Origin: an uncultured Candidatus Saccharibacteria bacterium
GTDB lineage: Bacteria > Patescibacteriota > Minisyncoccia > Phycocordibacterales > DATDWN01
Assembly: GCA_964551495.1 (NCBI GenBank)
Contig: CAZKCA010000003.1
Coordinates: 4,535 to 68,534 of the forward strand
Length of the DNA: 64,000 nucleotides
Direction of reading: 5' to 3'
Within the stretch, counting starts at the first letter, position 1; every line of letters starts with the position of its first letter. Below, piece by piece: positions 34,326 through 53,366 of the stretch. A model generated the notes under the pieces. The model was not told the DNA's origin. It did not search any database and saw only the letters and a program-made list of their open reading frames with translations. A program made the translations under genes and the position numbers.

Positions 34326-34705
34326 AATCCTAATTATAACTTATGGGGCTATAATCGGAAGGGGAAAAGAAAAAACACCTGAAGGTGTTTTTTGCGGAGG
34401 AGGTGAGATTCTCCCTCGACTCAAATACTCGCCGTCTCTCGTATTTGGTCTGGGCACCGACTCACAACCCATTGCTCTCGATGGGTGCCCGCTCTGTCGT
34501 TCGAATCTCACCTCCTCATTTAGACAAACAAAAAATTCCTAATACCTCAATCGGTATTAGGAATTTCCGTTGCGGTGTACTCGGGTATGGTACCCCACAC
34601 TCCAAGCCTTGTAAGGCTATTTTAGCGCATTTGAGATGAGAAGAAAAAGGTTTGTGGGTCGGGTCTCTTTTCTGAGCATGAGACATCTAAGGGGGTTAGT
34701 GAGCT

Positions 34706-35479
34706 GTGCCCACAAATGCCAACAAATGCCAATTTTTTGATATAATAAAAAACATGACAGTCGGCGAATTGGTATATCAAACAGCAATCAAAGAGGGATA
34801 CAGCCCAACTTTTGCAGAAGGGCTTATTTCACCGTTGAATAATGCGGTAGAGGCGTACCAAAAAGCTTTTGAATATATAAGGGAACCCCTCAAGACGGTC
34901 AGTTCGGTAATCGAATCTGTACGACCTCAAATGGAAGCTATGGCAAAATTGCCTCTTCCTTCAATACCACAGATAACAATGCCGGCACTTCCTGAAACTT
35001 TTGACGAGGAGGATGGTTATTTCATGCCCGTATTAACACGACCGGTTCAGGAGGTTCGGATTGTGAACCCCGAGGACATTGTCGTCGCACCAGCGAGACA
35101 AAACCATAAATATGTAACTGCCTCATATCAACTCCCTGGTAATGCTAAATGGGAATCCCTCGACATCCAGTTCGTCGATGGGCATTTCGTCAGGGTATCG
35201 TATCCAAAAATGGAACCAAAGAAATTCGACTTCAAAGACATGGGATTTCTCAACACGAAGACGAACCGCCCCGACCGCAAGTGGGAGTTACTCAGGGAAA
35301 TGGCCGATAACGGTGGTGCGTTAGCCAACGATAAGTGGGATGGGCGGTATAGTAGGAACATCAAGTACGACCTAAATGTTCAACTCAGAGAGTTCTTCGG
35401 TATGAATGAAAACCCGATCCCTCATTACACTAAGAAGAATGGGTACTGGGCGAAATTTACACTACGAGGAGACAGATAG
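34706..35479 (+). CDS. hypothetical protein (island cargo)
   Basis: 257-aa ORF with island-like codon usage. Confidence 0.45.
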   Translation: MPTNANKCQFFDIIKNMTVGELVYQTAIKEGYSPTFAEGLISPLNNAVEAYQKAFEYIREPLKTVSSVIESVRPQMEAMAKLPLPSIPQITMPALPETFDEEDGYFMPVLTRPVQEVRIVNPEDIVVAPARQNHKYVTASYQLPGNAKWESLDIQFVDGHFVRVSYPKMEPKKFDFKDMGFLNTKTNRPDRKWELLREMADNGGALANDKWDGRYSRNIKYDLNVQLREFFGMNENPIPHYTKKNGYWAKFTLRGDR

Positions 35480-35655
35480 TCATTTCAACTGAGATGACGA
35501 AACAAAGACCCTTAGCTGGAAACAGCAAAGGGTCTTTTGTATTAAGGATATTTTTGGTCACAGTTCCTGAAAGTCAAAAGAAAATTGTCATTTTGTCATT
35601 CAATGACGAATAAGGGTAGAAGAGCTTAATAAAACCCTCTTCTGACATTAACCCT

Positions 35656-36951
35656 ATGGCAAAACAAAAGATCATATGGTCGCCAACCACTCGCAAGCTC
35701 GGCGACTTGATCAAAAACGGGTATAACCCACGCTCGTTAAGCGAGAATGAACGCAGGGACTTGGAGAAGTCCGTGAAAGAGTTCGGAACGGTTGTCCCTA
35801 TCGTCCTCAACATCGGCTCGCGAGCCAACACCATCATCGGCGGCGAACAGCGGGTCAAGGTATACGCCGACCTCGGTATTGAGGAGGTCGAATGTATGAT
35901 ACCTTCCCGAGAGCTAACGCTCAGTGAAGAACGAGAACTTAACCTCCGCCTCAACAAGAATACTGGCTCTTGGAATGAAGAGCTTCTCAAAGATTTCGAC
36001 ATGAACGTACTGCTCGATGTCGGCTTTGGTGACGAGGAGCTTCAGAACCTCTTCGACGACGTCGATGTAGTCGATGACGATTTCAATATAGAGAAAGCAC
36101 TCAAGGATACGATCACGCCAAAAGTGAAGTCGGGAGAAATCTGGGAACTCGGTAAGCATCGTCTTCTTGTCGGCGACTCGACTGACAAGGAATCGGTGGA
36201 GAGACTTATGAACGGAGACTTAGCGGACATCGTGTACTGCGATCCTCCCTACAACATTGGTCTCGACTATTCCAAGGGAGTTGGCAACAAAGAAAAGTAT
36301 CAAGGTTCATATTCCGGTAAGGACGACTCCAAGAAGGACAGTGAGTACATGGAATTCTTGGACAAGAGCATGGAGGTGGCAAAAAGCATAAGCAAGAAAG
36401 ACGCCCATCTATTCTACTGGTGCGATTCTTCATACATTGGGGTGGTGCAGAGCTTGTATGCAAAGCACAAGGTTGATGCGAAGCGTGTCTGCCTGTGGCT
36501 TAAGAATAATCAAAATCCTACGCACAAAATCGCCTTCAATAAAGTGTATGAGCCGTGTGTATACGGAACGACTGGCAAACCGTATCTCAACCAGGGGCTA
36601 AATAACGTAAACGAAATTCTCAACCAGGAAGTAACCACCGGCAATCAGGTGCATGACGAGATATTAGACATGATCGACATCTGGATCGAGAAGCGAGACA
36701 ACGCTCAGTCATACCAGCACCCTACTCAAAAACCTGTAACCCTGAATGAGAAACCGTTCAAACGATGCAGTGCTCCACTTCACATTGTCTATAGCGGATT
36801 TGCCGGAAGCGGCAGTGACCTCATTGCGGCAGAAGAACTGAATCGCGTATGGCGAGGTGTCGAGGTTGATCTCATCTTCGCGACCATCGTTATCGACCGA
36901 TGGGAGAAATTTACCAATCTTAAGGCAAAGAAAATCTATGGAAATAACTAA
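35656..36951 (+). CDS. ParB-like nuclease domain fused to a DNA amino-methyltransferase (N6-adenine or N4-cytosine)
   Basis: N-terminal ParB/Srx-like region (NGYNPRSL...VVPIVLN) and C-terminal MTase motif IV (IVYCDPPYN). This is a phage-typical ParB-MTase fusion. Confidence 0.8.
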   Translation: MAKQKIIWSPTTRKLGDLIKNGYNPRSLSENERRDLEKSVKEFGTVVPIVLNIGSRANTIIGGEQRVKVYADLGIEEVECMIPSRELTLSEERELNLRLNKNTGSWNEELLKDFDMNVLLDVGFGDEELQNLFDDVDVVDDDFNIEKALKDTITPKVKSGEIWELGKHRLLVGDSTDKESVERLMNGDLADIVYCDPPYNIGLDYSKGVGNKEKYQGSYSGKDDSKKDSEYMEFLDKSMEVAKSISKKDAHLFYWCDSSYIGVVQSLYAKHKVDAKRVCLWLKNNQNPTHKIAFNKVYEPCVYGTTGKPYLNQGLNNVNEILNQEVTTGNQVHDEILDMIDIWIEKRDNAQSYQHPTQKPVTLNEKPFKRCSAPLHIVYSGFAGSGSDLIAAEELNRVWRGVEVDLIFATIVIDRWEKFTNLKAKKIYGNN

Positions 36952-37687
36952 AGGAGACATATTCAAGGTCGGCGATCACACTATCGCGTGCGGTGATTCG
37001 CTTGATAGAGCCTTTGTCAGCAGGGTCATCGGGTCAAGTAAAGTACGGGCGGTCATCACCGACCCTCCTTATGGCGTTGCGTATGTTGAGAACAAGAAAG
37101 GCATATCGAAGCTCGGTGTAAAAGACGAAAAAGCAATCGTGGGCGACCATCTCCAAAGTGAAGATGAGTACGAGGAATTTACTCGCAAGTACCTTGGAAT
37201 GGTCGTGCCCTATCTTGAGGAATACAACGCGGTTTACATCTTTAATGCCGACCCAATGTTTCCGAGTCTTCGATCAGGTATGAAGTCTGCAGGCTTCTAC
37301 TATAGCCAAATGATCATCTGGCTCAAAAACCAACCTGTCATGAGTCGAAAGGATTACCTTTCGCTTTATGAACTCATCGCCTACGGCTGGTTCGGCAAGC
37401 ACAAGATGGAACGATCAAAAGCAAAGAACGTGATCTACTATCCACGACCGACACGATCAAGACTGCATCCGACGCAAAAACCCGTGGGACTTTTGCGAAA
37501 GATTATCCCTAACTCAACGAAGGTCGGCGACATTGTCTATGACCCCTTCCTTGGAAGCGGGTCGATCGCTGTTGCGTGTGAACACTTAGGTCGAAAGTGT
37601 ATCGGCATCGAGCTTGATGAGGCGTATGTGGTGGCGTCACTCAAAAGGCTTGAGAAGCTCACCGGCGCAAAGGCGGTGAAAGTATGA
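36938..37687 (+). CDS. DNA amino-methyltransferase (second, adjacent)
   Basis: Motif IV VITDPPYGVAYV and a SAM-binding DPFLGSGS segment. The ATG at 36938 overlaps the upstream MTase by 14 nt. Confidence 0.8.
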   Translation: MEITKGDIFKVGDHTIACGDSLDRAFVSRVIGSSKVRAVITDPPYGVAYVENKKGISKLGVKDEKAIVGDHLQSEDEYEEFTRKYLGMVVPYLEEYNAVYIFNADPMFPSLRSGMKSAGFYYSQMIIWLKNQPVMSRKDYLSLYELIAYGWFGKHKMERSKAKNVIYYPRPTRSRLHPTQKPVGLLRKIIPNSTKVGDIVYDPFLGSGSIAVACEHLGRKCIGIELDEAYVVASLKRLEKLTGAKAVKV

Positions 37688-37691
37688 GTGT

Positions 37692-38066
37692 ATGCAAGAA
37701 GAAGATTTTTCCAAGGATCCGTATAAAAAACAGATCTACGAAACCTACGCTCTTTGGAAGTCTCTTCCCTCATTTCTTAAAGGACAGCCGAGGGTGGCGC
37801 TTGAAAAGTTTGGCATTGAGGAAGAAGCGGTCTTTGAGCTCTTATCAGTAAAGACTCAACTTGATTTTTCCAAGAAGTATGTGGTCGACGTCGGTACGCT
37901 TACTGACTGGAACAAGCGACTTGAGAGGGACGGGATAAGCAAAAACCTAAATGTGTGGGCGCGCAAGCTCACACCGAATGTCATCTTCGCCCTCTACAAA
38001 AACATCATCAAGAGTGGTCGAGCCCACGAGGTACGTGCATGGTTTGAGATCGTAGAAAATCACTAA
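37692..38066 (+). CDS. hypothetical protein (island cargo)
   Basis: 124-aa ORF co-directional with and tightly linked to the MTases. Confidence 0.4.
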   Translation: MQEEDFSKDPYKKQIYETYALWKSLPSFLKGQPRVALEKFGIEEEAVFELLSVKTQLDFSKKYVVDVGTLTDWNKRLERDGISKNLNVWARKLTPNVIFALYKNIIKSGRAHEVRAWFEIVENH

Positions 38067-38068
38067 AT

Positions 38069-38263
38069 ATGGAACCTATAAATTTAGCAGAAATAAATCA
38101 CATTCTTTCGGACACCCTCCGCAAGGTGTTGAACAAAGAGATATCGCACAAGCAGGCATCTATGATTGCCAGACTTGCTTCTACTCTTTCCAAAAACATC
38201 GTGAATACAGAATTGAAGGAACGGGTCGAATTCCTTGAAAACGCACTACGAAGAAACAAGTAA
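38069..38263 (+). CDS. small hypothetical protein
   Basis: 64-aa ORF that overlaps the next gene. Confidence 0.3.
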   Translation: MEPINLAEINHILSDTLRKVLNKEISHKQASMIARLASTLSKNIVNTELKERVEFLENALRRNK

Positions 38264-39761
38264 TATGAAAAATCTCAGTAACATTTTAAGGAGGTCAAAC
38301 ATAACGCCATTTGAGCGAGTGATGACGCTTGTTCGTAACGATGCTCACAAAGAAAAAACTGGCAAAGGCCTGCTGTCAGAATCCGATGTGTATACACTAA
38401 CTCAAGGATGGAATGGGGATACTTCGGAAATAAAGGAATACAACAAATACATAAACATCGCTCGGCTAAAAAGCTCCATGTATATGGATGCCCAAATGTT
38501 CCTCTACAGAGCAGAATTGTCACTTCTACGAAACCAAAGGGTACTGGATACCTTCCTCCCTCGTGTAAGGATGATCAATGAGCTGACAGACCACCCATTT
38601 GCAAAAGACATCCCAGTTGAAGAGAGTGTGCGATTTCTTACACAACATACGCATATAAGGTACGAGAAGGTATTACACATATATACCTTTCACAAACTCC
38701 CTAAGGAAATACAGAGCGACCTACTTCTCTTGGACGAAGAAATCGCGAGTGATGAAAAATATTTAGGAGATCAGGTTTTTCTCTATGAGCTATTTGGTGA
38801 CGGTAATTCGCTAAGCAAGCAGAACAAAGATTTAATAATCACCAACATCTACTCTCGTATGTATTACGAAGGCGTTAAGAAAATCAAAAATAGTACATCG
38901 GAAAAAGATGGCTTTCTGCTCCACCCCTTCTTTGCTGAACTGCCAATCAAAGATTTGTTCCAGAAATTGGTGGATGATGAGCATATTGCATCCGACAAAA
39001 CGGATGATGACAGGGAAGAAGGGATCTTGTCTCTTGTTGAAGAATACGCAAGAAACAAAAATATGAGTATTGAAAGAGTTATTAAAGAAAAGTTGTCACA
39101 ATGGATCGATGAAGGATTGTTCGTCAATGCATACACTCCACTTTTTATGAGCGAACAATTCGACACATGGGGTGGCAATACTAAGAAGAGCCACAAAGAG
39201 TTGTTCGCGATTTGGTATGCAGAACTTCAAAAATCTAAGCTGTATTTTGCAGATCTTTTTAGCGCAAAGAAGCTAGAAAAAAGCACCTTTGAGAAAGAGT
39301 TTTTAGGTGTGCCAAAAAAGATAGAAGTGCTGACTGGAACCAGTTTGTATGCTTGTAAAGAAAAAATTGATTTTGTGGAAGAATACAAGAAGCAAATTAA
39401 ATGTCTTTTGCCAATCGCTAATATATTTCTTTTTATAAAGAAATATGCAACGCCAACTAAAAACTTTAAGACGCTGTGCGAGTTTAAAAAATTGGCTCAA
39501 AAAATATCGTCAATGTTTGATATTGATATGACAGAAAAGTATACAGAGTTCATTAATTCATATCAGGAAGAAGTTGCATTTCTCAACCTAAGCTCAAGCA
39601 GACTCGCAGACACGGCAACAGAACATCTGTACACTCAAGAGTCCCTGCAATATGTCATCGATATTGATGAGCGTTGTTTTGCCTTTGATCTCGAGGAAGA
39701 GGGCGAGACAGCAACTATCGCGCAGATGTACTCCGAAGAATTTAAAAAGCTTGGAGCATGA
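38235..39761 (+). CDS. large hypothetical protein (508 aa, island cargo)
   Basis: Long ORF with no recognisable motifs. Confidence 0.5.
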   Translation: MKTHYEETSNMKNLSNILRRSNITPFERVMTLVRNDAHKEKTGKGLLSESDVYTLTQGWNGDTSEIKEYNKYINIARLKSSMYMDAQMFLYRAELSLLRNQRVLDTFLPRVRMINELTDHPFAKDIPVEESVRFLTQHTHIRYEKVLHIYTFHKLPKEIQSDLLLLDEEIASDEKYLGDQVFLYELFGDGNSLSKQNKDLIITNIYSRMYYEGVKKIKNSTSEKDGFLLHPFFAELPIKDLFQKLVDDEHIASDKTDDDREEGILSLVEEYARNKNMSIERVIKEKLSQWIDEGLFVNAYTPLFMSEQFDTWGGNTKKSHKELFAIWYAELQKSKLYFADLFSAKKLEKSTFEKEFLGVPKKIEVLTGTSLYACKEKIDFVEEYKKQIKCLLPIANIFLFIKKYATPTKNFKTLCEFKKLAQKISSMFDIDMTEKYTEFINSYQEEVAFLNLSSSRLADTATEHLYTQESLQYVIDIDERCFAFDLEEEGETATIAQMYSEEFKKLGA

Positions 39762-39983
39762 AAATATTGTTGGCCATAGTAAATAATTCGGGTCACTTTT
39801 TATCCTTGACAAACCAGTAATTTATTGCTATACTACTCAAATAGTTCTTTGTAATGGATCAGTGTAGTTAAGACGAGCTTTTTGAGCCTTATTTTAGGGC
39901 CTAAAAAGCTTGTCTCAACTACGGGACTAGTCGAGCCGAAGCGTTCTTCGGTAAATGCCCATAAGGCAGAAGGAGATAACGTC

Positions 39984-40874
39984 ATGCAGACGATTACTCA
40001 GGCAACTGCCGGTCAGATCAAGCAGATCAACCGGTTCGGAAACGACGCCATCGAGAAGGTTCTCGGTGAGCTCGGACTCGACAACCCTGGCGCCCAGCGC
40101 GTCATCGAACACGGCGACGAATTCGCCGAGGCCATCCGCACGGCCGCCCTCGCCTCGCTCAAGGACCTGTCGGTCTCCGACAAGTTCAAGGACGAGGAGG
40201 TGGAGTCGAGCTACGGCTACCTCTCTGGCTACACGAAGCCCAAGTCGATCACGGAGCAGTGCAATATCCTGCGCCAGATCTTCCCGGGCATCGGGTTCGC
40301 CGACGAGAAGCTCGCCGAGCGCGAAGTGCCGCAGCACGCCGAGGGGTGGTTCGCCATCCCGAAGTGGCAGACGGTCGCTCCGACCTACACCGAAGCGGTC
40401 CAGAAGGTGCTCGACGCGGTGAAGTCGGCTCGTAACGGGAAGTTCTACAACTACCGTGACGGGCAGATCAACAACTCGCGTCTGCGCCAGACGGCCAAGA
40501 CGGCGTCGGTGTTCCAGAAGCTCGGCAACGAGCAGAAGGATCACGACATCCTCGTGGTGGCCGCCCAGTTCGGCATCCGCCATCGGGGACGTTCTGTCCG
40601 CCGTGCTCGTGAGGTCTTCGCGGCCAACGAGTTCGGACTCGGCGCATTCGCCATCGGCATCATGATCCTGACCCACCAGGAACGGCTCATGAACTATAAC
40701 GACCTCTGGATCGACTGCTCGGGTGACGAGTTTGATGATCCGGATGCCGATGTCCGCTTCGATCTCGCCCCGTGCTTCGACTTCAGCGACGGCGGGGTCG
40801 AGTTCGGCGCGTACTGGTTCGGCTATGCCAGCGGCCACTGCGGTTCCGCGTCGGCTTTCGTTCCGCAGAACTGA
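39984..40874 (+). CDS. DGR target (variable) protein, with the variable region at the extreme C-terminus
   Basis: The start at 39984 follows an AAGGAG RBS. The gene is about 62% GC. Its last 131 nt before the stop form the VR. Confidence 0.8.
   Translation: MQTITQATAGQIKQINRFGNDAIEKVLGELGLDNPGAQRVIEHGDEFAEAIRTAALASLKDLSVSDKFKDEEVESSYGYLSGYTKPKSITEQCNILRQIFPGIGFADEKLAEREVPQHAEGWFAIPKWQTVAPTYTEAVQKVLDAVKSARNGKFYNYRDGQINNSRLRQTAKTASVFQKLGNEQKDHDILVVAAQFGIRHRGRSVRRAREVFAANEFGLGAFAIGIMILTHQERLMNYNDLWIDCSGDEFDDPDADVRFDLAPCFDFSDGGVEFGAYWFGYASGHCGSASAFVPQN
40738..40868 (+). repeat. DGR variable region (VR)
   Basis: 131-nt ungapped match to 41282-41412 with 17 mismatches, every one at an adenine of the TR copy. 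Confidence 0.9.
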
Positions 40875-40942
40875 TCCTTGATGCTCGAACTCTTGAGTCT
40901 TTTGAATCCTTTCTTTTGATTCTTGAGTTCGCGGCAAATTTT

Positions 40943-40972: not shown

Positions 40973-41281
40973 ATTTCTTTTTATACAGAAAATATTTTTG
41001 ATATACTTATACATGAGTCTAGGCTCATGCACGGTCGTTCAAGGATTGCCGTCGCCGAACTCTTTCTCTTTGTTCTCATTAAGAGAAAACGACCAGGGTC
41101 TTCCCGATTACGATTTGGAAGAGAGCGTCGCGATGAGGAGATACTGCTTGTCTTTGTTTAAGACAGACCATTAAGCCTATATGGCGGGTGCTGTCAGATA
41201 AAATTCAGGAGCGAGATCGCACCTTGTTTCCAACAAGGAATACTTTCAAGCTCTGGTGGCTCGGATGAGCAAAGACGAATT

Positions 41282-41412
41282 ATCCGGATGCCGATGTCCG
41301 CTTCGATCACGCCCCGTACTTCAACTTCAACGACGGCAAGGTCAAGTTCGACACGAACTGGTTCGACAATGCCAACGACAACTACGGTTCCGCGTCGGCT
41401 TTCGTTCCGAAG
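41282..41412 (+). repeat. DGR template region (TR)
   Basis: Intergenic copy of the VR in which every VR/TR difference is A in this copy. It lies between the target gene and avd/RT. Confidence 0.9.
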
Positions 41413-41455: not shown

Positions 41456-41809
41456 TTATCGAGAAGTACTAGATGACCTAATCCATCCACCAAGCATGCG
41501 GCCGATTTCATCGATCATTTCTTGGAGTGTGGTGTATTTCTTGTTATCAAGTGACTTTGTTTCTTTCATTAGACGAATAAAAAAACGAAGAGTGTTTAAC
41601 TTGATACTGGCCCTTTCCAAAATTACAGTCTTATTACCACTTTTCGAATATCCTGCCTCGAGAAAATATTCGATGACATCGACAATCAAATTTTCACTTC
41701 GTTCGTAGACAGTGAACCTTTCTGCTTTAGGAATTAACTTACGATGTTCTTGAAATGTTTTATACAGTTCATACGACTTTTTAATAATAGGGATATCAAT
41801 TTCATTCAT
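41456..41809 (-). CDS. avd: Avd-like accessory variability determinant (four-helix-bundle family)
   Basis: 117-aa basic helical protein with four-helix-bundle family features (...ERFTVYERSENLIVDVIEYF...EMIDEIGRMLGGWIRS), adjacent to the TR and RT. Confidence 0.65.
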   Translation of the reverse strand: MNEIDIPIIKKSYELYKTFQEHRKLIPKAERFTVYERSENLIVDVIEYFLEAGYSKSGNKTVILERASIKLNTLRFFIRLMKETKSLDNKKYTTLQEMIDEIGRMLGGWIRSSSTSR

Positions 41810-42854
41810 GCGAGTTTATACAAAGTTATTTGATAAAATAATTAACGCCGAGAATCTCTTTTCGGCGTGGGATGAGTTCAAGCTCGGGAAGAGAAACAAA
41901 TCCGACGTGCTTGTTTTTGAAAAGAATCTTGAGCAGAATATTTTTGCCTTGCATAGAGAATTAGTAAGTAAGGCATATCGGCATGGAGCGTATAGCAACT
42001 TCTATATTTATGATCCGAAACTCCGACATATTCATAAAGCGACGGTTCGAGACAGAGTGTTGCATCATGCAATTTTTCAGATACTCAATCCAATTTTTGA
42101 ACCAACTTTTATATCCCATTCTTTTTCCTGCCGCGTCGGAAAAGGAACTCATAAAGGCGTTCATGTTTTGGACATAATGCTTCGTAAGGTCTCGAAGAAT
42201 TACACTCAAACAGCGTATGCACTTAAATGTGATGTCAGAAAGTTTTTTGATAGTGTTGACCACACTATCTTGATCAAGCTTCTGCAAAGAAAGATGAAAG
42301 ACCTTGGGGCTTTGTGGCTTATGGAGGAAATAATCGAGAGTTTTGCCGGAGAGTTTTCCGATTTGTTTACCCGAAGAGGGCTTCCTATTGGTAATCTGAC
42401 ATCGCAACTGTTCGCCAATGTCTACATGAATGAGTTTGATCAGTTTATGAAAAAAGAACTGAAAATTAAAAATTATGTTCGCTACACTGATGATTTTGTT
42501 GTTGCATCTGATAACGAAAATTTCTTGAAAGACCTTGTCCCTAAAATCCAAGACTTCCTTCACAATCATCTCAACCTTGAGTTGCATCCAAGCAAGGTCA
42601 CCATAGGTACATACCGACGTGGCATTGATTTTCTCGGCTACGTTTCTTTTCCTCACTACCGTACATTGCGCAAACGAACCGAGAAAAGAATGCTTCGCAA
42701 GCTGGATGAGAAAATCGAGTTGTTTAAACAAGGAGAGATCGACGAGGAAAGATTGAAGCAAACACTTCAGTCTTACCTGGGAGTCTTGAGTCATGCTACC
42801 GCTCTCAGATTGAGCCGAGATTTCAGCAATCGAATATTGTTTAGGAGAACATGA
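41808..42854 (+). CDS. DGR-type reverse transcriptase
   Basis: RT motifs 1-7 including the DGR hallmark IGNLTSQ and the catalytic YTDD (RYTDDFVV). The N-terminus LFDKIINAENLFSAWDEFKLGKRNK is typical of DGR RTs. Confidence 0.9.
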   Translation: MRVYTKLFDKIINAENLFSAWDEFKLGKRNKSDVLVFEKNLEQNIFALHRELVSKAYRHGAYSNFYIYDPKLRHIHKATVRDRVLHHAIFQILNPIFEPTFISHSFSCRVGKGTHKGVHVLDIMLRKVSKNYTQTAYALKCDVRKFFDSVDHTILIKLLQRKMKDLGALWLMEEIIESFAGEFSDLFTRRGLPIGNLTSQLFANVYMNEFDQFMKKELKIKNYVRYTDDFVVASDNENFLKDLVPKIQDFLHNHLNLELHPSKVTIGTYRRGIDFLGYVSFPHYRTLRKRTEKRMLRKLDEKIELFKQGEIDEERLKQTLQSYLGVLSHATALRLSRDFSNRILFRRT

Positions 42855-44995: not shown

Positions 44996-46429
44996 ATGGG
45001 CTTAAGTTTGGGAGATTTGCGAGGTCAGGTTATCAACTTCTTATCTACTCGGGACGCTCTGGACTCCTGGGGAGGGTTGCGTCATTCATTTGAATGTATG
45101 AAAAACGCAACAATACAGGCGCCATTAGGGACTGCGGCCAAAGTAGCAACCCCAATAAGGGTCAGGTACTGCCTTTACGCGAGAAAAAGTACCGAATCAG
45201 AGGAACGGCAAGTCCTCTCAATTGATAGCCAAATCAAAGAGATGCTTCAATTAGCAGAGCGAGAAGGTCTGGAGGTCGTGACCATGAAGCGAGAGAGTCA
45301 CTCGGCCAAAGAGACTGGGCAACGGCCGGTCTTCAATGAAATAGTTGATGAATTACGACAAGAAAAATTTAACGGCATTCTCACATGGGCGCCAGATCGT
45401 ATCAGTAGAAATGCGGGTGACCTCGGAAAGATTGTAGACCTCATGGATGAAGGAAAACTCCATGAGATACGAACATATGGACAGAGTTTCAGGAATAATC
45501 CGAATGAGAAATTCCTGCTGATGATTCTTGGATCGCAAGCAAAACTCGAAAATGATAATCGAGGTATCAACGTGAAGCGAGGTCTACGAACGAGAGTGGA
45601 GATGGGACTTTGGCCCGGCATGGCGCCGCTCGGATATCTGAACCAGAAGCTCATGGACAAGAAATGCAGAATTATCATTGATCCGGAACGTGCGCCGGTC
45701 GTAAAGCAAATGTTTGAGAAGGTCGCATACGAAGGATGGAGTGGTCGTAAAGTATACAACTGGCTTCGATTCGACCTCAACTTCCATACACGAGGCAACA
45801 GACCGCTAACACTTAGCGGTGTATATCGAATGCTCCAAATGCCCATCTATTACGGACCATTCGAGTATCCCCGAAACAGCGGTAGTTGGTATCAAGGGAC
45901 GCACGAACCTCTTATCACCGAGGAACTATTTAAGAAAGTGAATGAGCAACTGAAGCGTGACAAGATCGTGCGAGAAAACCGAGAATTCGCCTTCACTAAG
46001 CTGTTCACCTGCGGCATGTGCGGATCGGGTATCACTGCTCAGGAAAAATACAAACTACTCAAGGACGGTACGAATGCCAAATACATTTACTACTCCTGCT
46101 CGAAAGCGAGGGACAGAAATTGCAAGAACAAATACATACGAGAGGAAGAACTTGTCGAGGAATTATTTAAAGTCATCGACAAAGTGAGTATTAACGAATT
46201 AGGTATGAGAATGAAGCTCGAAGAAGAAATCAAGCGGTTCAACCGACTGCAACGACTCGCGGCCAAAGGAAAACCAAAGATGCAGATCGACGAGGATGAC
46301 ATCGCCACACGAGAATACGCTAAGTATGTTCTGCGTGAAGGAACGGCAATCGAGAAACGTGAGCTAATGGGTCACTTGCGAAGCAGGCTGGTGCTGAATG
46401 ATAAAAAGATTACGCTGATTGAAGAATAA
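44996..46429 (+). CDS. large serine recombinase (resolvase/invertase catalytic domain, recombinase domain, zinc ribbon)
   Basis: Catalytic YARKSTESEERQ, a recombinase domain, a Cys cluster CGMCGS...YYSCSK...C, and a C-terminal coiled-coil. The true start may be an internal ATG. Confidence 0.85.
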   Translation: MGLSLGDLRGQVINFLSTRDALDSWGGLRHSFECMKNATIQAPLGTAAKVATPIRVRYCLYARKSTESEERQVLSIDSQIKEMLQLAEREGLEVVTMKRESHSAKETGQRPVFNEIVDELRQEKFNGILTWAPDRISRNAGDLGKIVDLMDEGKLHEIRTYGQSFRNNPNEKFLLMILGSQAKLENDNRGINVKRGLRTRVEMGLWPGMAPLGYLNQKLMDKKCRIIIDPERAPVVKQMFEKVAYEGWSGRKVYNWLRFDLNFHTRGNRPLTLSGVYRMLQMPIYYGPFEYPRNSGSWYQGTHEPLITEELFKKVNEQLKRDKIVRENREFAFTKLFTCGMCGSGITAQEKYKLLKDGTNAKYIYYSCSKARDRNCKNKYIREEELVEELFKVIDKVSINELGMRMKLEEEIKRFNRLQRLAAKGKPKMQIDEDDIATREYAKYVLREGTAIEKRELMGHLRSRLVLNDKKITLIEE

Positions 46430-46480: not shown

Positions 46481-46984
46481 ATGAAATTATCATCAACAAT
46501 GTTTCTGCAAATAGTGATCTTGCTCATAGGTCTTGGTGCTCTTGCCTTCCTGCTTATGATGCCCCGCCTTGAAGGCGTAAACGCAGGTGTCACCACGCTT
46601 TATCAAATATACTTTGATGACCCATTCTTGATATTCGTATATGCGGGTTCTATTCCATTCTTTGTCGCCCTCTATCAAGCCTTCAAGGTGTTCGGATATG
46701 TCGGACAAAACAAGACGTTCTCCGAGGCGGCGGTAGGAGCGTTGCGAAAGATAAAATACTGCGCGTTCATCACTGCGGGTGCAATCATCGCCGTAGACGC
46801 TTTCCTCATGATACACACGCGTCTGTATCCCGAAGTCGGCGCGGTAGATGGTCCCGAGGGCGCTGTGATGCTCGGACTCATCGCAACATTCATTTCCGTC
46901 GTCATCGGCACTGCGGCGGCAATACTTGAACGGACTCTGCAGAACGCCGTAGAGCTAAAGTCCGAGAACGACCTAACCGTATAA
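46481..46984 (+). CDS. DUF2975-like membrane protein
   Basis: Four-TM protein immediately upstream of a small XRE HTH regulator, which is the known YozG pairing. Confidence 0.5.
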   Translation: MKLSSTMFLQIVILLIGLGALAFLLMMPRLEGVNAGVTTLYQIYFDDPFLIFVYAGSIPFFVALYQAFKVFGYVGQNKTFSEAAVGALRKIKYCAFITAGAIIAVDAFLMIHTRLYPEVGAVDGPEGAVMLGLIATFISVVIGTAAAILERTLQNAVELKSENDLTV

Positions 46985-46989
46985 CCACC

Positions 46990-47193
46990 ATGTCTATCAT
47001 CATCAACATAGATGTCATGCTCGCGAAGCGGAAGATGAGCGTTACTGAACTGGCAGAGAAAGTTGGAATCACCATGGCAAATATTTCCGTGCTAAAAAAT
47101 GGAAAAGCTAGAGCTATCCGATTAGCAACCCTAGAAGCGATTTGCAAAGCCTTGGAATGTCAGCCTGGAGATATTTTGGAGTACAAAAAGTAG
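46990..47193 (+). CDS. XRE-family helix-turn-helix transcriptional regulator (YozG-like)
   Basis: 67-aa protein with the HTH LAEKVGITMANISVLKNGKARAIRLATLEAICKAL. Confidence 0.7.
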   Translation: MSIIINIDVMLAKRKMSVTELAEKVGITMANISVLKNGKARAIRLATLEAICKALECQPGDILEYKK

Positions 47194-47370: not shown

Positions 47371-47592
47371 ATGAGAGAATTTACGACCCCTTTGAAGGAA
47401 TACGGTTCACTTCTCCCGCCGGTCTGGAGCTGGCGCGAGGAAGAGATGACCAAGCAAGAAGCAAAGGAGCACTTTGATTGGTTCTTATCGATTATTCCGG
47501 AGCGCATTGCAATGCTTGAAAAAGTTATTAATGCAAACCCTCCGTCCGTAGGGGCAATTATGGTTCCTATTCAGCAATATGGAAAACTCTGA
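47371..47592 (+). CDS. small hypothetical protein upstream of the sigma factor
   Basis: 73-aa ORF overlapping the sigma factor start by 14 nt. It could be a co-transcribed partner or anti-sigma candidate. Confidence 0.35.
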   Translation: MREFTTPLKEYGSLLPPVWSWREEEMTKQEAKEHFDWFLSIIPERIAMLEKVINANPPSVGAIMVPIQQYGKL

Positions 47593-48190
47593 CGTAGAAA
47601 TCATTAAAAAAGCCAAAGCAAACTCCCAGATATTTGAGGAGCTGTATCGGAAGTATGCCGATAAGGTGTACAACTACTTTTGGTACAGAACCGGTCACCA
47701 GAAAGACGTGGCCGAGGATTTGATGCAGGAAACTTTTTATCGCGCATTCAAGCATCTGTCACGTTTCCAGATACGTGGATACTCGTACCTAACCTATTTG
47801 CTCACGATCGCGCATAATATTCTTGCAAACTACTATCGCTCCAAGAAAATGATTCCTCTTTCAGAGCTCGGGGAGATCGGCGAGGATTTTGATGTTCCAG
47901 CTGAGATTACTGAATCGCTTGAGCGAAAGGACGAAGCACGGGCGCTTTGGCGTGCAATCCAAGACCTCTCCTCCGCGGAGCGTGATGCGCTACTCATGTT
48001 TTATCAAAAAGAAATGCCGATCAAGGATATAAGCCGGGTCATGGCAAGAAGCGAGAACGCGGTAAAGCTCATCCTTTCAAGGGCACGAAAAAAGCTCGCA
48101 CAGCACCCCTATCTGCGGGATATGGTTGGGTTTGCAGATCAGGAGCGAAAGTACACCAAACCTCGATATCTTAAGATGAAAAAAGAATGA
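47579..48190 (+). CDS. sigma-70 family RNA polymerase sigma factor (ECF-like)
   Basis: Region 2 (DLMQETFYRAFKHLSRFQ) and a region 4 HTH (LMFYQKEMPIKDISRVMARSENAVKLILSRARKKL). Confidence 0.7.
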   Translation: MENSDVEIIKKAKANSQIFEELYRKYADKVYNYFWYRTGHQKDVAEDLMQETFYRAFKHLSRFQIRGYSYLTYLLTIAHNILANYYRSKKMIPLSELGEIGEDFDVPAEITESLERKDEARALWRAIQDLSSAERDALLMFYQKEMPIKDISRVMARSENAVKLILSRARKKLAQHPYLRDMVGFADQERKYTKPRYLKMKKE

Positions 48191-48314: not shown

Positions 48315-48764
48315 TTGCAGGCACTTGAGAAGGAGGTAAACATACCTATGTCTCGCGAACTCATACCGCGCAACTTCCTAGAGAATATCTGGGATTTCGA
48401 CGATGATCTTCTGTCACTCTTCGATACGCGGTCTACGTCCGGATTATCTTCAGGGCTATCGGTGTCCGAGGATGATAAGCATGTGTATGTAGAAGCATCG
48501 GTTCCCGGCGTTGATCCAGACAAGATCGAAGTATCGTATGACAAGGGTGTTCTCTGGATACGCGGCCAGCAGGAGCAGGAGAAAGGCGGCGATCGCAAGT
48601 ATTACCGCAAAGCTTCGTCTTCGTTCTCCTACCGAATGGCTATTCCAGGGAATGTGGATGAGAACAAAGATCCGGAAGCAACGTACAAGAACGGCATTAT
48701 GAAAGTGACGTTCAACAAAGTTCCGGAACCACAGCCAAGGAAGATTGCAGTGAAAGTCCAGTAA
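48315..48764 (+). CDS. Hsp20/alpha-crystallin small heat-shock protein
   Basis: Alpha-crystallin domain (HVYVEASVPGVDPDKIEVSYDKGVLWIRG...GIMKVTFNKV) preceded by the strong RBS AAGGAGG. Confidence 0.85.
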   Translation: MQALEKEVNIPMSRELIPRNFLENIWDFDDDLLSLFDTRSTSGLSSGLSVSEDDKHVYVEASVPGVDPDKIEVSYDKGVLWIRGQQEQEKGGDRKYYRKASSSFSYRMAIPGNVDENKDPEATYKNGIMKVTFNKVPEPQPRKIAVKVQ

Positions 48765-49194
48765 TCCCTTGCCTTACTAGTTCCGCACCTGTGGGCTTGG
48801 TCGGATATGAAGGCAATCACATTCTTTCCGTCTCTCCTTAAGTGGTTGAAATGGGAAGTGTGGAGACTGAATAAGACTTAGGAAGAGTCGGTGATTTACA
48901 ATTGAATAGTCGGTGTGTTTAGCGCACATAGCGCGAAATAATCCCGGATAACCGGGGTTGAGGCAGAGAGGATCGGGGTTTCTTGTAATCTTCCGCATTA
49001 GGTGTGCAGGTACCGTAGACTTCCTGCAGAAGTTTGGAAGATTCACCCATTCCTCCTGTCCGTCAAAAGAGCCGGGCAAACCAAGAATAATCTTGGGCAC
49101 CCGGATCAGGAGATAACACAATAGCTTACCTCTTGATCCGGATGTATGTCGACATCCGGTCAATTTTCTATTACAATTAATAAAGCAAACGCGT

Positions 49195-51912
49195 ATGGCA
49201 CAGGAACTATGTCAAATCTGCAATGAGCGTCCAGCTACGGTTGAAGTAACTGTCTCTCGCAACGGAAGACAGGAGCTTTTGCGCGTCTGCAATTATGATT
49301 ACCAGAAACTGGTTCGCTCACAACAGTTCCGCTCGCCGATGGAACGCATGTTTGGCGGCGGAAGCCCGTTTGATGATTTCTTCTCCGATTTCGATGACTT
49401 TGGAGGATTCTCTTCACGCATTGGTTACCCGATCCCACGTCATCGGGAAGCTTTGGATATAGATCAGTATCTCTCCTCAAGCACGAAGGAACTCATTCAG
49501 GATGCCGGACAGGCCGCAGTAAAACTCAAGAAAAACGAGGTTGATACCGAACATCTCCTGTATGCGCTTTCCGATAATGATGTCATTAAGGAGATTTTCA
49601 AGCAGTTCAAGATAAACGAAGCTGACATCAAAGGCTATATCGAAAACAATGCGCCGAAAGGTACGCAGGAGTCCAAGAAAGGAGAAACGGTTGAGCTCAC
49701 TATCTCTCCGCGCATCAAGAATGTAATGGAGCTTGCGTTCCGCGCAAGTCAGGAACTCGGCCACGGCTACATCGGACCTGAGCATCTTTTGGCTGGTCTC
49801 GTTGAAGAGGAAGATGGCATGGCCGGTGATCTACTTCGCAAATACGGACTTACCCCCGAAAGTCTCCGTCAGAAAATCGTGAAAGTTGTCGGCAAAGGCG
49901 CGAAGGAAGGCCGGGTGGAGACGCAGTCCACTACTCCAACGCTCGACAAGTATTCACGTGACCTTACAAAGCAAGCTTCTGCTGGCAAACTCGACCCGGT
50001 CATAGGCCGATCTGATGAGATTGAGTCAGCTATCGAAATTCTTTCACGCCGCACTAAGAATAACCCCGTGCTTATTGGTGAACCGGGTGTCGGTAAGACC
50101 GCAATCGTTGAAGGACTTGCACAGCGAATCAACAGCGATGATGTTCCGGAGACGCTTCAAGGCAAGCGTGTCGTCGAACTGAATATAAACTCGCTTGTTG
50201 CCGGTTCTAAGTATCGCGGCGAGTTTGAGGAGCGCATTAAGCAAGTGTTGGATGAGGTTCTGGAAAATAAAGATGAGCTCATCATCTTCATCGACGAGCT
50301 CCACACCATCATGGGAGCCGGTGGTACCGGCGAAGAAGGTGGACTCGATGTGTCACAGGTCATTAAACCGCACCTTGCTCGCGGCGATATGCACCTTATC
50401 GGCGCAACGACGCTCTCTGAGTACCAGAAGCATATCGAAAAGGATGCGGCTCTTGAGCGCAGATTCCAACCGGTGTTTGTTTCTGAACCTACCGTTCCGC
50501 AGACAATTGAGATATTAAGGGGTTTACGAGATCGCTATGAGGCGCATCATAAAGTAAAGATTACGGACGAAGCTATTGTTGCGGCGGCAGAACTTTCCGA
50601 CCGCTACATCACAAACCGCTTCTTGCCGGACAAGGCTATTGATCTTGTCGATCAGGCGGCTTCCCGTGTTCGCATTGGTCTCACGTCCCGGCCGGAAGAA
50701 GTCCGCAAAATGGATCAGGAAATTGATCGCCTCAAGAGAGAGCGAGAATATGCTTCTTCCCACAAACAGCACGATAAGGCTAAGGAGCAGGAGTCCAAGA
50801 TTGAAAAGCTTGAGAAGGAGCGATTCGACAAAGAGTCTGCATGGCGTAAGGAGAAAGGTGTCACGACTGCCGAAGTAACCAAACAGCATATCGCGCAGGT
50901 GATCTCAAAGATTACCGGTGTTCCGGTGCAGGAGCTTACGCAGGAAGAAAAAGAAAAGCTCTTGAAGCTCGAAGAGCGTCTCCATGAGCGCGTCATCGGC
51001 CAAGAAGAAGCTATTACGGCAGTCTCTGATGCAATCCGTCGATCTCGCGCAGGTCTATCAGCACAGAAGCGTCCTATAGCAAACTTGCTGTTCTTGGGCC
51101 CGACTGGTGTTGGTAAGACTGAACTTGCAAAAGCTTTGGCGTGGATCGTGTTTGGCGATGAGGACGCAATGGTTCGCATCGATATGTCCGAGTATATGGA
51201 GCGACACGCCGTCTCCCGATTGATCGGTGCTCCGCCTGGCTATGTTGGCTATGAGGAAGGTGGTCAGCTTACCGAGACTGTTCGCCGTCGCCCGCATCAG
51301 GTGATCCTCCTTGATGAGATTGAGAAGGCTCATCCGGATGTTCATAACATTCTTCTTCAAGTATTCGATGACGGCCGTCTTACAGATGGAAAGGGTCGTG
51401 TTGTTGATTTCACCAATACGGTCATCATTGCTACCTCAAATATCGGATCAAGTATTATCCAAGCCAACTTAACTTCCGAAAAAACAAAATCATACGAGGA
51501 GCTTAAAAAAGAATTGGCTGATGTTCTTCGTGCTCAGTTTAAGCCGGAATTCCTCAATCGCATTGATGAAATTATTGTATTCCATTCCCTTACCAAAGAG
51601 CAGATTCGACTTATTGTTACGTTGCAGCTGGAGCGGGTAAAGCGCACTGCTCGCGGACAAGGCATAGAACTCAATTTCTCGGAAAAAGTAATTAATCATC
51701 TTGCAGATATCGGCTATCAACCTGAGTACGGCGCACGAGAACTCAAACGCAAGATTCAGGGAGAGATTGAAACAGGCCTTGCAAAGGAAATGCTCTCCGG
51801 CCGTATTGTCGAAAGGGATATTGTCTCGGTCGGCTTCGACAAGTCCAAAGTGACGTTCACAAAGGAAGAAACGAAAAAAGAACGTAAGAAAGTACCAACC
51901 CCTAAGAAGTAA
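49195..51912 (+). CDS. ClpB/ClpC-family AAA+ chaperone with an N-terminal Cys-rich extension
   Basis: Two AAA+ modules ([18 protein letters not shown] and [15 protein letters not shown]), a coiled-coil middle region, sensor motifs, and an N-terminal CQICN...VCNYDY stretch. Confidence 0.85.
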
Positions 51913-51918
51913 ACTGCC

Positions 51919-53163
51919 ATGTTCAGAGATCTAACAAAAAAAGAAATGCAGAGGCTCTTGTTCGTCGGCGTTGCGTCGGCTTTGATCGCTGTGCTCATTG
52001 CCGGCTCTGGCTTTACGCTTCTCTTGAAGAATAAGCCGGAGGTGCTTGGCATGGCGCTCACAGCGGCGGCTAACAGCCCCTCTGGAGTCTTGGTTGTGTC
52101 TTCAACAGACGACGCGGTCATCAATGCGGTAAAGAAGGCCGACCCAGCAGTCGTTGCGATAACGATATCAAAAAACGTGCCAGTGTATGAACAGTATCTG
52201 GAACGGGTGCCGAGTCCGTGGAGCGACTTCTTTTGGGATGATTTCTTCGGTGGCTTTACCGTACCGCAATTGCGACAAAAAGGTACTGAACTGCGCGAGG
52301 TCGGTGGTGGCTCTGGATTTCTTGTCTCAGCCGACGGCTACATCGTTACTAACCGGCACGTAGTAGCTGACGAAAACGCCGAGTACACGGTCTTCACCAA
52401 TGACGGTAAGAAATACGACGCGAAAGTCATTGCTCGCGATCCTGCGCTTGATCTGGCGATCATAAAAATTAACGGTTCGGGCTTACATTACCTCACGTTC
52501 GGCGATTCAGATAAGCTCCAAGTCGGCCAAACCGTAGTTGCTATTGGCAATGCGCTTGCGGAGTTCAGGAATACCGTATCAGTCGGTATCGTATCCGGTC
52601 TCTCTCGCTCGATAGTTGCCTCCGATGGTCTCGGTCGCAATGCCGAATCTCTGGATCAGCTTATTCAGACAGACGCTGGTATAAATCAGGGTAACTCCGG
52701 TGGACCTCTCTTGAACCTCACCGGAGAGGTTATCGGAGTCAATGTCGCAATGGCAGATGGTGCAGAAAATATCGGATTTGCTCTCTCTGCAAACAGCGTA
52801 AAGAGTATTGTTGAATCGGTTAAGAAAACCGGCAAGATTGTGCGTCCGTATCTTGGAGTACGCTATGTAGAAATTAACGAGGACATTAAGCAAAAGAATC
52901 ATCTTTCCGTTGACTATGGCGTATTTGTTCAGCGAGGAGCAGAAGCCGGAGACTTAGCGGTCATTCCTGGATCTCCTGCGGACAAGGCTGGAATCGTTGA
53001 AAACGACATTATTCTTGAGATCGACGGCATTAAGCTCACAAATGATCAGAGCCTTGCAAGCATCATTCGTACGAAAAAAGTTGGAGATAATATACGGCTT
53101 AAGATTCTAAGCAAAGGTAAAGAAAAAACAGTGGAGGTGGTATTGGAAGAGATGAAGCAATAG
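51919..53163 (+). CDS. HtrA/DegP-family serine protease with a PDZ domain
   Basis: Catalytic triad context including GNSGGPLLN, N-terminal TM anchor, and a C-terminal PDZ domain. Confidence 0.9.
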   Translation: MFRDLTKKEMQRLLFVGVASALIAVLIAGSGFTLLLKNKPEVLGMALTAAANSPSGVLVVSSTDDAVINAVKKADPAVVAITISKNVPVYEQYLERVPSPWSDFFWDDFFGGFTVPQLRQKGTELREVGGGSGFLVSADGYIVTNRHVVADENAEYTVFTNDGKKYDAKVIARDPALDLAIIKINGSGLHYLTFGDSDKLQVGQTVVAIGNALAEFRNTVSVGIVSGLSRSIVASDGLGRNAESLDQLIQTDAGINQGNSGGPLLNLTGEVIGVNVAMADGAENIGFALSANSVKSIVESVKKTGKIVRPYLGVRYVEINEDIKQKNHLSVDYGVFVQRGAEAGDLAVIPGSPADKAGIVENDIILEIDGIKLTNDQSLASIIRTKKVGDNIRLKILSKGKEKTVEVVLEEMKQ

Positions 53164-53276
53164 TACATTGGTACATACAAAAAGAGCGATTACTTCGCTC
53201 TTTTTGTATACAACACAGCTTTGTGGGTCACAGCTCAACGTCGAGCTTGTGGGTTGCCAAAACTAATAAGTTCTCT

Positions 53277-53366
53277 TGGCGGAGGAGGTGAGATTCGAAC
53301 TCACGGTCCCCGTAAAGAGACTCCTGTTTTCAAGACAGGTGCAATCGACCACTCTGCCACTCCTCC
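53277..53366 (-). tRNA. tRNA-Ser (anticodon TGA), CCA encoded. This is the island's integration target.
   Basis: Minus-strand type II tRNA with acceptor GGAGGAG/CTCCTCC, anticodon loop CTTGAAA, a long variable arm, and T-arm GTGAGTTCGAATCTCAC. Its 3' 18 nt are duplicated at 34394-34411. Confidence 0.9.

Follow-up and report, generated by a model that had tools for sequence, protein, structure and literature searches.

Two questions are raised by a GC-rich island that lies against a serine tRNA gene in a contig (CAZKCA010000003.1) of an uncultured Candidatus Saccharibacteria bacterium: what kind of element it is, and where it begins and ends. The island was analysed within a stretch of 64,000 nucleotides, here called the window, in which the 18-mer GCGGAGGAGGTGAGATTC occurs exactly twice, at 34394–34411 and at 53279–53296, with a chance expectation of 0 matches (100 shuffles). 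At the right, the repeat makes up the terminal 3′ segment (T-loop to C74) of a tRNA-Ser(tga) gene on the minus strand (53277–53366), which was called by both ARAGORN and Rfam. A first-pass annotation had taken the two copies as the direct repeats bounding an 18.9-kb integrative element, decayed or non-canonical, with a serine recombinase in an atypical central position. Its repeats are exact at both positions, and the jump in composition that it reported is also present: the GC content is 31.6% in the left flank and 30.8% in the right flank, compared with 46.1% in the island interior (38–60% in 1-kb windows), and the tetranucleotide correlation to the flanks drops from at least 0.90 outside to 0.09–0.82 within the island. 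An island that was horizontally acquired, by integration at the 3′ end of tRNA-Ser, is therefore a supported description. Its boundaries, its state and its recombinase are read differently here. The segment from approximately 34572 to 53282 (18.7 kb) is very probably the integrated copy of a modular mobile element, whose family is widespread in the Candidate Phyla Radiation (CPR; Patescibacteria).

Approximately 45 related loci were assembled from the neighbourhoods of homologues of the island's large serine recombinase (LSR) and from a genome scan with its ParB-methyltransferase fusion protein, which yielded 37 loci in CPR metagenome-assembled genomes (MAGs). The family was seen only in CPR/Patescibacteria assemblies. 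The 37 MAG loci share a conserved backbone, in the order found at 34706–39761 of the window: p257, the ParB-methyltransferase, a second methyltransferase, the helix-turn-helix (HTH)-like p124, p64 and p508. The backbone is followed by variable genes, the LSR and further variable genes, giving two cargo slots, and is 60–90% identical between hosts labelled as different CPR lineages. LSR homologues of 73–94% identity are present in Kaiser-, Nomura-, Uhr-, Niyogi- and Paceibacteria assemblies, and nearly all family loci that reach the corresponding region encode an LSR of 59–94% identity (30% in L042). No CPR element combining an LSR with a tRNA-Ser target was found in the literature, and the family is, as far as we could find, undescribed.

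Comparison with the relatives places the conserved left end of the element at 34572, not at 34394, a terminus that the first-pass annotation had missed. Twenty left ends (those of the window, 18 further loci and L079) are homologous from a single base in BLAST searches and alignments, reading GC followed by GGTGTACTCGGGTATGGTACCC... or by GGTGTACTCGGGTATGGTACC; the core GCGG (34572–34575, plus strand) of the left attachment site (attL) thus marks the start of all 19 other aligned left ends, and the left end of L078, found by motif match, also begins at GCGG. Sequences upstream of the left ends are unrelated to one another, and several contain a terminator hairpin, as expected because this region lies downstream of a tRNA. 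In the window, it holds a Rho-independent terminator hairpin on the tRNA strand (34531–34568, minus strand), which would be the former downstream region of tRNA-Ser and the B arm of attL.

The right end abuts the 3′ end of a minus-strand tRNA-Ser in all 15 loci that reach it (L001–L009, L039, L076, L078, L079, L080 and the window), in at least 10 distinct flanks and with the anticodons gga, cga, gct and tga, together with one reported by ARAGORN as 'act'. Here the core GCGG of the right attachment site (attR) occupies 53279–53282 (plus strand); on the tRNA strand it reads CCGC, corresponding to C71 and C72 of the acceptor stem, the discriminator G73 and C74. GCGG is the only sequence common to the two conserved ends of the window element, so that the direct repeats are not supported as its attachment sites: the left 18-mer lies 180 bp outside the terminus that the family conserves. 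The complete elements of L009 (~10 kb), L078 (~12 kb) and L079 (12.7 kb) likewise have GCGG at both ends, and in these three and in the window attL and attR share only this short core. No direct or inverted repeats of the tRNA were found in L079 (at least 10 nt) or in L009 (at least 13 nt); L078 was not searched. Four shared bases without a carried tRNA fragment are what the 2-bp staggered exchange of a serine recombinase predicts, unlike the tRNA islands of tyrosine integrases.

The position of the crossover and the recent history of the family are both visible in one relative, a 15.2-kb element termed P0011-type. Its copies in L001, L003, L005, L007 and L008 show 0 mismatches over 15,220 bp, and that in L006 shows 0 mismatches over 12,220 bp in register, on contigs from several samples. 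The tRNA-Ser genes beside these six copies (two gga, cga, gct and tga) and their right flanks differ. At the right end, the P0011-type copies agree as far as ...GTTCTTAGT-GCGG (...TTAGT-GCGG); beyond this, the acceptor 3′ strand differs for each locus and pairs, on inspection by hand in L001 and L005, with the 5′ strand of its own tRNA. Therefore, the crossover lies at or within GCGG. The family has recently moved, because this one relative is 100% identical in five tRNA-Ser contexts; the identity points to what is apparently a spread in very recent times, involving at least two CPR populations and probably more. Together with the presence of the LSR in nearly all loci, this contradicts the description of the element as decayed or non-canonical and argues for a family that is probably intact and currently mobile.

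The LSR gene (45098–46429, plus strand) encodes 443 amino acids from its true start at 45098. The protein matches the resolvase (PF00239), recombinase (PF07508) and zinc ribbon (PF13408) domains, all over their cut-offs, and carries the YARKST serine motif. Its best NCBIfam similarities are to CcrB and XisF, and its best sequence matches in the Protein Data Bank (PDB) are SPbeta YokA/SprA and the A118 integrase. From this and from the right ends, every one of which abuts a tRNA-Ser among those examined, the LSR is probably the integrase, and its central location is not the anomaly that it had seemed. L009 and the window are related in the LSR (91–94% identical; 91% by tblastn), the 90-bp left end (99%) and the right end (~80%), whereas the interior is almost unrelated; because L009 shares only these parts with the window, the LSR and the two ends appear to travel as an integration module.

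The two conserved ends are non-coding. The left end, which would form the P′ arm, runs from GGTGTACTCGGGTATGGTACCC... to a TTTGTGGGTCG motif (34576–34665, plus strand), and it is this arm that is 99% identical to L009. The right end, the putative P arm, follows the pattern AGCTTTGTGGGTC...GGG..CAAAACTA..A.GTT...... (53215–53278, plus strand), and the intact tRNA-Ser(tga) serves as the B′ arm. Joining the conserved ends gives a reconstructed attP, ...CCAAAACTAATAAGTTCTCTTG-GCGG-TGTACTCGGGTATGGTACCCC..., and excision of the LSR element would leave an attB of ...GGTATTAGGAATTTCCGTT-GCGG-AGGAGGTGAGATTCGAAC... In the mechanism that we propose, the LSR recombines attP with an attB at the extreme 3′ end of tRNA-Ser, with a crossover inside GCGG, probably at the non-palindromic GG. 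A cut at C72-G73-C74 would replace only the trailer; the mature tRNA would stay intact because the break lies after the acceptor stem, and for the same reason any serine isoacceptor may be usable. No tRNA fragment would need to be carried.

A further motif, (A/G)G(G/C)TTTGTGGGTC(G), occurs in direct orientation at both ends, ~80 bp inward on the left and ~60 bp inward on the right, at 34650–34662 and 53217–53229 of the window and at 2159–2171 and 11973–11985 of L009; a degenerate copy lies ~30 bp inside the right end of the window element (53245–53256). It could be a candidate accessory protein-binding site beside attP of the circular form.

Among known systems, the element appears to work like those integrated by LSRs (phiC31, Bxb1, A118, SPbeta SprA, SCCmec CcrAB and XisF), with which it has in common the three-domain LSR, a single recombinase and the small number of bases shared by the ends. 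It differs from them in its target, which is not a protein-coding gene but the very 3′ terminus of a tRNA gene, whichever the serine isoacceptor; in the location of the LSR in mid-element, between two cargo slots; in the CPR hosts; in the lack of a recognised recombination directionality factor; and in the additional TTTGTGGGTC motif, which is conserved ~60–80 bp from the core at both ends. Islander-type tRNA and tmRNA islands and the tycheposons of Prochlorococcus resemble it in that they, too, occupy tRNA 3′ ends in streamlined genomes and have a modular defence and stress cargo. A minority of the tycheposons, counted together with related cryptic elements, likewise encode a large serine recombinase (27 of 937; bioRxiv 10.1101/2020.12.28.424599). 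In contrast to both groups, the window element has no tyrosine recombinase, restores no tRNA fragment and would cross over beyond the acceptor stem, not in the T-loop or anticodon loop; it also has no recognised replication module (primase or helicase). Judged on sequence features, it is therefore neither an Islander-type island nor a prophage, nor an integrative and conjugative element (ICE).

The left 18-mer belongs to a separate 180-bp structure just outside the element (34394–34571), which we call a mini-module. It comprises the displaced copy of the tRNA-Ser 3′ end, from the T-loop GAAT to C74 (34394–34411, minus strand), an 87-bp GC-rich structured spacer (34412–34498, no strand assigned) and an inverted 19-nt copy of the T-arm and acceptor 3′ strand (34499–34517, plus strand), which is 100% complementary to 53282–53300 and had escaped the first-pass annotation. 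With the LSR element removed, the order on the tRNA strand is tRNA-Ser, terminator, 19-nt inverted copy, GACAGAG, 87-nt spacer and 18-nt direct copy. The mini-module has 49% GC in a host of 31% GC; its terminator part is AT-rich like the host.

The same architecture is found in L012 (8669–8795) beside attL of a P0011-type element; its arms are inverted copies of each other without a mismatch and correspond to the 3′ end of tRNA-Ser(gga) of L001, the tRNA of L012 itself lying beyond the fetched locus. Short-range versions occur where there is no island, with repeats 191 nt downstream of tRNA-Glu in L005, 204 nt downstream of tRNA-Lys in L011 and 106 nt downstream of tRNA-Arg in L038. The spacer of the window and the ~190-bp insert after tRNA-Glu in L005 share a 50-nt motif of the form TCCCTCGACTCAAA-[hairpin]-TTTGGTCTGGGCACCG, in which the internal hairpin differs in sequence and stays self-complementary. 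The consensus order of the mini-modules is a terminator, an inverted T-arm/acceptor copy with G(G/A)C(G/A)GAG, a GC-rich spacer and a direct repeat of 14–18 nt. Modules of this kind, 100–200 bp in length, recur downstream of CPR tRNAs: at 15672–15877 of L005, after tRNA-Lys (1384–1459) of L011, after tRNA-Arg (5851–5925) of L038 and after tRNA-Lys (12687–12760) of L055. The 124-nt inverted-repeat segment of the window gave no ARAGORN or Rfam match (E ≤ 0.1), and an identity as tRNA, tmRNA or known RNA was not upheld; readings of the mini-module as resembling a retroviral primer-binding site, as a miniature inverted-repeat transposable element or as a cis-mobilizable element (CIME) were considered. 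Its two arms could form a stem of 15–18 bp that mimics the acceptor/T minihelix. Mini-modules could be scars of another class of tRNA-integrating elements, or genes for mimics of the acceptor/T-arm. We conclude that the 18-bp repeat is real and is part of a mini-module. The LSR element would have inserted at a regenerated tRNA end, between the terminator of the mini-module and the tRNA, and would thereby have pushed the 18-bp repeats 18.9 kb apart.

The closest view of an unoccupied target is offered by the contig L055. The window shares with CPR contigs the synteny of its flanking genes tRNA-Lys(ttt), tRNA-Arg(gcg) and NDH2, and L055 shows the same tRNA-Lys/tRNA-Arg/NDH2 synteny, with an NDH2 of 75% identity. 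Its tRNA-Ser(tga) has an identical 3′ end and neither element, repeat nor mini-module. This site is at moderate evolutionary distance: the first-pass annotation had proposed a search for an empty tRNA-Ser site in related genomes, and an unoccupied one was found, whereas the exact empty site of the host was not. Between its tRNA-Ser(tga) and NDH2, L055 contains 4.1 kb of genes (1828–5985, compared with 34326–34393 of the window) that are absent from the window; they encode a polysaccharide deacetylase, a NUDIX protein, an oxidoreductase, a DUF488 protein, a lycopene cyclase and a DoxX protein, and have partly 41–46% GC. Synteny with L055 is also broken on the other side of the tRNA, and the tRNA-Ser locus is a rearrangement hotspot. 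In the left flank of the window, a sub-threshold Rfam match to the plant microRNA MIR6274 (34 bits, gathering score 80; 32003–32094, plus strand) overlaps tRNA-Arg(gcg) and is a chance match.

Several observations weigh against an LSR-integrated mobile element. None of p64, p124 and p257 could be recognised as a recombination directionality factor, and no replication, packaging or conjugation function was recognised in the element. A scan of IMG/VR with a degenerate pattern yielded neither a circular excised form nor an attP junction. By eye, no clear sign of the dyad symmetry that LSR attachment sites should have was seen in the reconstructed attP and attB, the comparisons of P with P′ and of B with B′ both being unconvincing, and the B arm is without any conservation. 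The metagenome search for the empty site of the host returned only L055 and a 1.9-kb fragment on the wrong side. Mobility is read from distribution and identity, with no known transfer machine, and the GC-rich mini-module could have arrived with the element rather than before it.

The alternative that survives best is a phage satellite or defective prophage packaged by a helper, as opposed to an island that is autonomous or spreads by transformation; we consider it unlikely. DGRs (diversity-generating retroelements), one of which the element carries, and LSRs are common in temperate phages, and the size range of 10–19 kb is satellite-like. The ParB-methyltransferase matches the phage family phrog_498 (284 bits). 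The backbone protein p124 is at best a small HTH protein, with a predicted HTH fold as in TerS- and excisionase-like proteins. Against this, no PHROG capsid, portal, terminase or primase was matched among the backbone proteins, and p508, for which a confident all-helical model was obtained, had no informative fold or family match and none in BFVD. A scan of IMG/VR with the ParB-methyltransferase brought up no close relative of the family, and the island had no megablast match in collections of phages (50,697 records) or plasmids. In agreement with the first-pass annotation, no capsid, terminase or tyrosine integrase gene was matched among the island open reading frames (ORFs) in Pfam and PHROGs, and PHROGs gave no portal or tail gene either; scanned ORFs of at least 60 amino acids had no match to a tyrosine (phage-integrase family) recombinase in Pfam, PHROGs or NCBIfam, and Pfam gave no relaxase, type IV secretion system or coupling protein in the island ORFs. 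Exact-protein look-ups with the LSR, NDH2, the Clp protein and P0121 retrieved no sister assemblies, and p124 led only to internal fragments of 1.3–3.3 kb.

It is improbable that the mini-module and the LSR element were transferred together as an accreted unit, in the manner of a CIME and an ICE, with both junctions arising from different events in a previous host. Such a transfer would agree with the 49% GC of the mini-module in a 31% GC host, with the same arrangement beside the P0011-type element of L012, and with the absence of a mini-module at tRNA-Ser(tga) of L055. It is opposed by the arms, which in the window match the local tRNA exactly and in L012 match each other and the tRNA-Ser(gga) 3′ end of L001, by the host-like AT-rich terminator part, and by the family at large, in which at least 15 of 19 left flanks have no mini-module.

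A tyrosine-integrase style of exchange between the 18-bp repeats, bounding an 18.9-kb segment whose integrase was lost or acts in trans and which has since decayed, is very improbable. The repeat is exact and not due to chance, the 180-bp segment between it and the element is GC-rich like the island, and its extent, from the T-loop to the 3′ end, is that of the Islander tRNA islands, whose repeats are described as typically covering this region (PMC4383910). Recombination between the repeats would give the junction ...GGTGTTTTTT-GCGGAGGAGGTGAGATTC-GAACTCACGG... Yet this displaced fragment, although 18 bp long in the window, lies 180 bp beyond the terminus common to 19 other left ends and is absent from L079 and L009. 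Similar 3′-end repeats occur 106–204 bp downstream of tRNAs without an island (L005, L011 and L038), and the presence of one relative, 100% identical, at different sites shows a family that is not decayed.

An assembly or binning artefact, in which a GC-rich contig of another organism and a 31% GC genome were fused where they share a tRNA-Ser sequence, was a concern of the first-pass annotation and would fit the abrupt change in composition at a conserved tRNA sequence. In principle, metagenome assembly may connect the wrong flanks where repeats are identical. The artefact can practically be set aside, since the same type of element/tRNA-Ser junction recurs in more than 15 independent assemblies (ENA, JGI, NCBI and Logan), both flanks of the window are syntenic with the single contig L055, and a GC mismatch after transfer is unsurprising given the spread of the backbone over lineages.

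The LSR-integrated element has a second recurrent component besides its protein backbone, the RNA LOOT (Rfam RF03000), which the first-pass annotation had not noticed. In the window, it would form the 5′ leader of a leftward operon (44820–44943, minus strand; Rfam 44822–44943, extended to 44820 by an in-house model, R1, built from six LOOT matches). The match is full-length, at 81 bits compared with a gathering score of 46.4, and covers model positions 1–121 of 121. With Rfam and R1, LOOT was detected in more than 20 family loci (L001 6642–6772, L009 5406–5525, L010, L022, L023, L025, L027–L029, L032–L034, L037, L038, L041, L044–L046, L076, L078 and L081), on the strand opposite to the backbone and LSR except in L044, where a plus-strand LOOT lies ~8 kb upstream of the ParB-methyltransferase. 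None was found in non-CPR loci, in the empty relative L055 or in the rest of the window; as L079 and L080 are without it, LOOT is frequent and not universal. In 12 of 16 loci, 62–73 nt separate its 3′ end from the start codon (ATG) of a downstream ORF that runs leftward; in the window, the gap is ~50 nt. The genes that follow differ, encoding membrane proteins, PDC-S18, SNase, a T5orf172 protein or a bPH-domain protein. LOOT thus has the character of a conserved leader that precedes a variable, swappable cargo operon. Full-length matches well over the gathering score are what it has in common with the Rfam family, for which no published genomic context was found; here it is a frequent component of an element family, 50–73 nt upstream of leftward genes.

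Additional copies of element parts were noted in some loci: a second LSR gene in L078 (1439–2761 and 10001–11356), a second LOOT in L028 (1737–1862 and 18497–18613) and L037 (5606–5737 and 15615–15740), and a LOOT copy of L044 (1620–1742, plus strand) near the element. These suggest tandem or neighbouring elements, with accretion at or near tRNA-Ser loci.

The genes named by the first-pass annotation (ParB-methyltransferase, second methyltransferase, DGR, LSR, sigma factor, Hsp20 and HtrA) were all recovered with Pfam and other family searches. At the left of the element, p257 (34706–35479, likely start 34754, plus strand) is a backbone protein of 43–74% identity in relatives; neither it nor p64, a small helical protein (38069–38263, plus strand), has a family match. 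Between them lie the fusion of a ParB_N domain with an N6/N4 DNA methyltransferase (35656–36951, plus strand) and the second N6/N4 DNA methyltransferase, of 249 amino acids (36938–37687, plus strand); the methyltransferases may protect incoming DNA from restriction. The family-specific, all-helical p508 (p508/498; 38265–39761, plus strand; model pLDDT 88) closes the backbone.

The cargo would be organised as two slots of adaptive genes, with a variable leftward operon that is headed by LOOT in most members, and may benefit the host. In the window, the slots would hold a candidate defence nuclease and a proteostasis cassette. The leftward operon includes p286, a membrane protein matching phrog_8263 (42903–43763, minus strand), and a DUF5655/NucS-like nuclease (43858–44793, probable start 44769–44793, minus strand). 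The latter had been annotated as PD-(D/E)xK-like; a nuclease gene it is, and the assignment is corrected to DUF5655 and to the phage-defence candidate PDC-S18 of PADLOC (331 bits, E = 1.5e-99). A homologue of 72% identity (tblastn) follows LOOT in L041. To the right of the LSR lie a DUF2975 membrane protein with a Cro/C1-type HTH regulator (46481–47193, plus strand) and the proteostasis cassette. Relatives carry, among other genes, those for P-type ATPases with CsoR-type repressors, DsbA/B, a low-molecular-weight phosphatase, an APH phosphotransferase, a glyoxalase, an SNF2 helicase and a Shedu-like SduA_C protein.

The DGR directly follows p508, as in at least 10 of the 37 family loci; L076 also has Avd and reverse transcriptase (RT) genes. 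It is complete. The target gene (39882–40874, plus strand) has the variable repeat (VR, 40735–40868) at its 3′ end and is without a family match in Pfam, PHROGs or NCBIfam. The template repeat (TR, 41279–41412, plus strand) forms with it a 134-nt pair in which each mismatch falls at a TR adenine. The accessory protein Avd (41456–41809, minus strand; DivGenRetAVD of NCBIfam, 87.5 bits with a cut-off of 80) and the RT (41808–42854, plus strand; RVT_1, 94.8 bits) complete the system, which is an optional module of the family, placed after p508. According to Roux et al. (2021, PMC8144416), the CPR-restricted 'clade 2' DGRs are cellular-encoded almost without exception. The DGR of the window shares with them the RT, Avd, adenine-specific TR/VR mutagenesis and a target without a recognisable domain upstream of the C-terminal VR; at variance with that description, its carrier is a mobile LSR element, a situation shared by at least 10 of the 37 family loci.

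The proteostasis cassette comprises an ECF-type sigma-70 factor (47579–48190), the small heat-shock protein Hsp20 (48315–48764), a stand-alone Hsp100 disaggregase (49195–51912) and an HtrA/DegP protease with a PDZ domain (51919–53163), all on the plus strand, and among family loci was found only in the window element. The disaggregase, adjoined by Hsp20, had been named ClpB; its assignment to Hsp100 stands, whereas the name does not, as the full-length scores are 1274 bits for ClpG and 1209 bits for ClpK compared with 1020 bits for ClpB, the first two being below the NCBIfam cut-offs of 1900 bits. The protein is 61% identical to ClpG/K-type genes on proteobacterial plasmids. Hsp20, the ClpG/ClpK-type disaggregase and HtrA/DegP (48315–53163) resemble the core for protein homeostasis in tLST (transmissible locus of stress tolerance), also called LHR (locus of heat resistance), which has been reported chiefly from beta- and gamma-Proteobacteria with a dna-hsp20-clpG core (PMC8290217). 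Common to both are sHsp20 beside a stand-alone disaggregase (ClpG: PMC8024975), which in the window is ClpG/ClpK-like, DegP/HtrA and location on a mobile island. The window element differs in host phylum, in vehicle and in having an Hsp100 below the ClpG/ClpK cut-offs; it has 3 of ~13 tLST genes, with an ECF sigma factor instead, and Pfam found no YfdX, HdeD, Trx, KefB, FtsH, orf1 'dna' or orf14/15 of tLST among the island ORFs. The trio is a distant, minimal tLST analogue on a different vehicle and not a tLST.

A wider reading can be offered tentatively, with confidence well below even in it as a joint proposal: the island would be the first recognised member of a CPR-wide class of LSR elements, which we believe to be undescribed, whose recombinase reads the acceptor end of tRNA-Ser and can thereby enter serine tRNA genes of every kind undamaged, with LOOT and the mini-modules as possibly functional RNA parts. 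LOOT would then be a regulatory RNA gating the swappable cargo operon or the life cycle of the element, and the tRNA-fragment mini-modules would be mimics of the acceptor/T-arm minihelix, not scars. Site-specific integration of islands is already known; new here are the CPR-specific backbone, the acceptor end of tRNA-Ser as a target and the associated RNA.

CPR/Patescibacteria account for a large share of bacterial diversity, and little is known of their mobile elements or of how they exchange genes. The adaptive cargo ferried by the family described here ranges from metal-resistance ATPases, Dsb proteins and an aminoglycoside phosphotransferase to defence candidates and, in the window, a ClpG-type heat-resistance core that is known elsewhere mostly from Proteobacteria; the family also gives a genomic home to the orphan Rfam RNA LOOT. 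At least some CPR DGRs that were earlier called cellular-encoded ride on a mobile element; if the wider reading is true, the 'cellular' CPR clade would be at least partly a mobile-element trait. With its crossover after the acceptor stem, a serine recombinase could use a tRNA gene safely. To our knowledge, CPR bacteria currently have no genetics, and an LSR with a short, universally present and non-disruptive attB is an obvious candidate tool for developing them: if that reading holds, the element would be both a natural vector and a site-specific integration tool for these bacteria.

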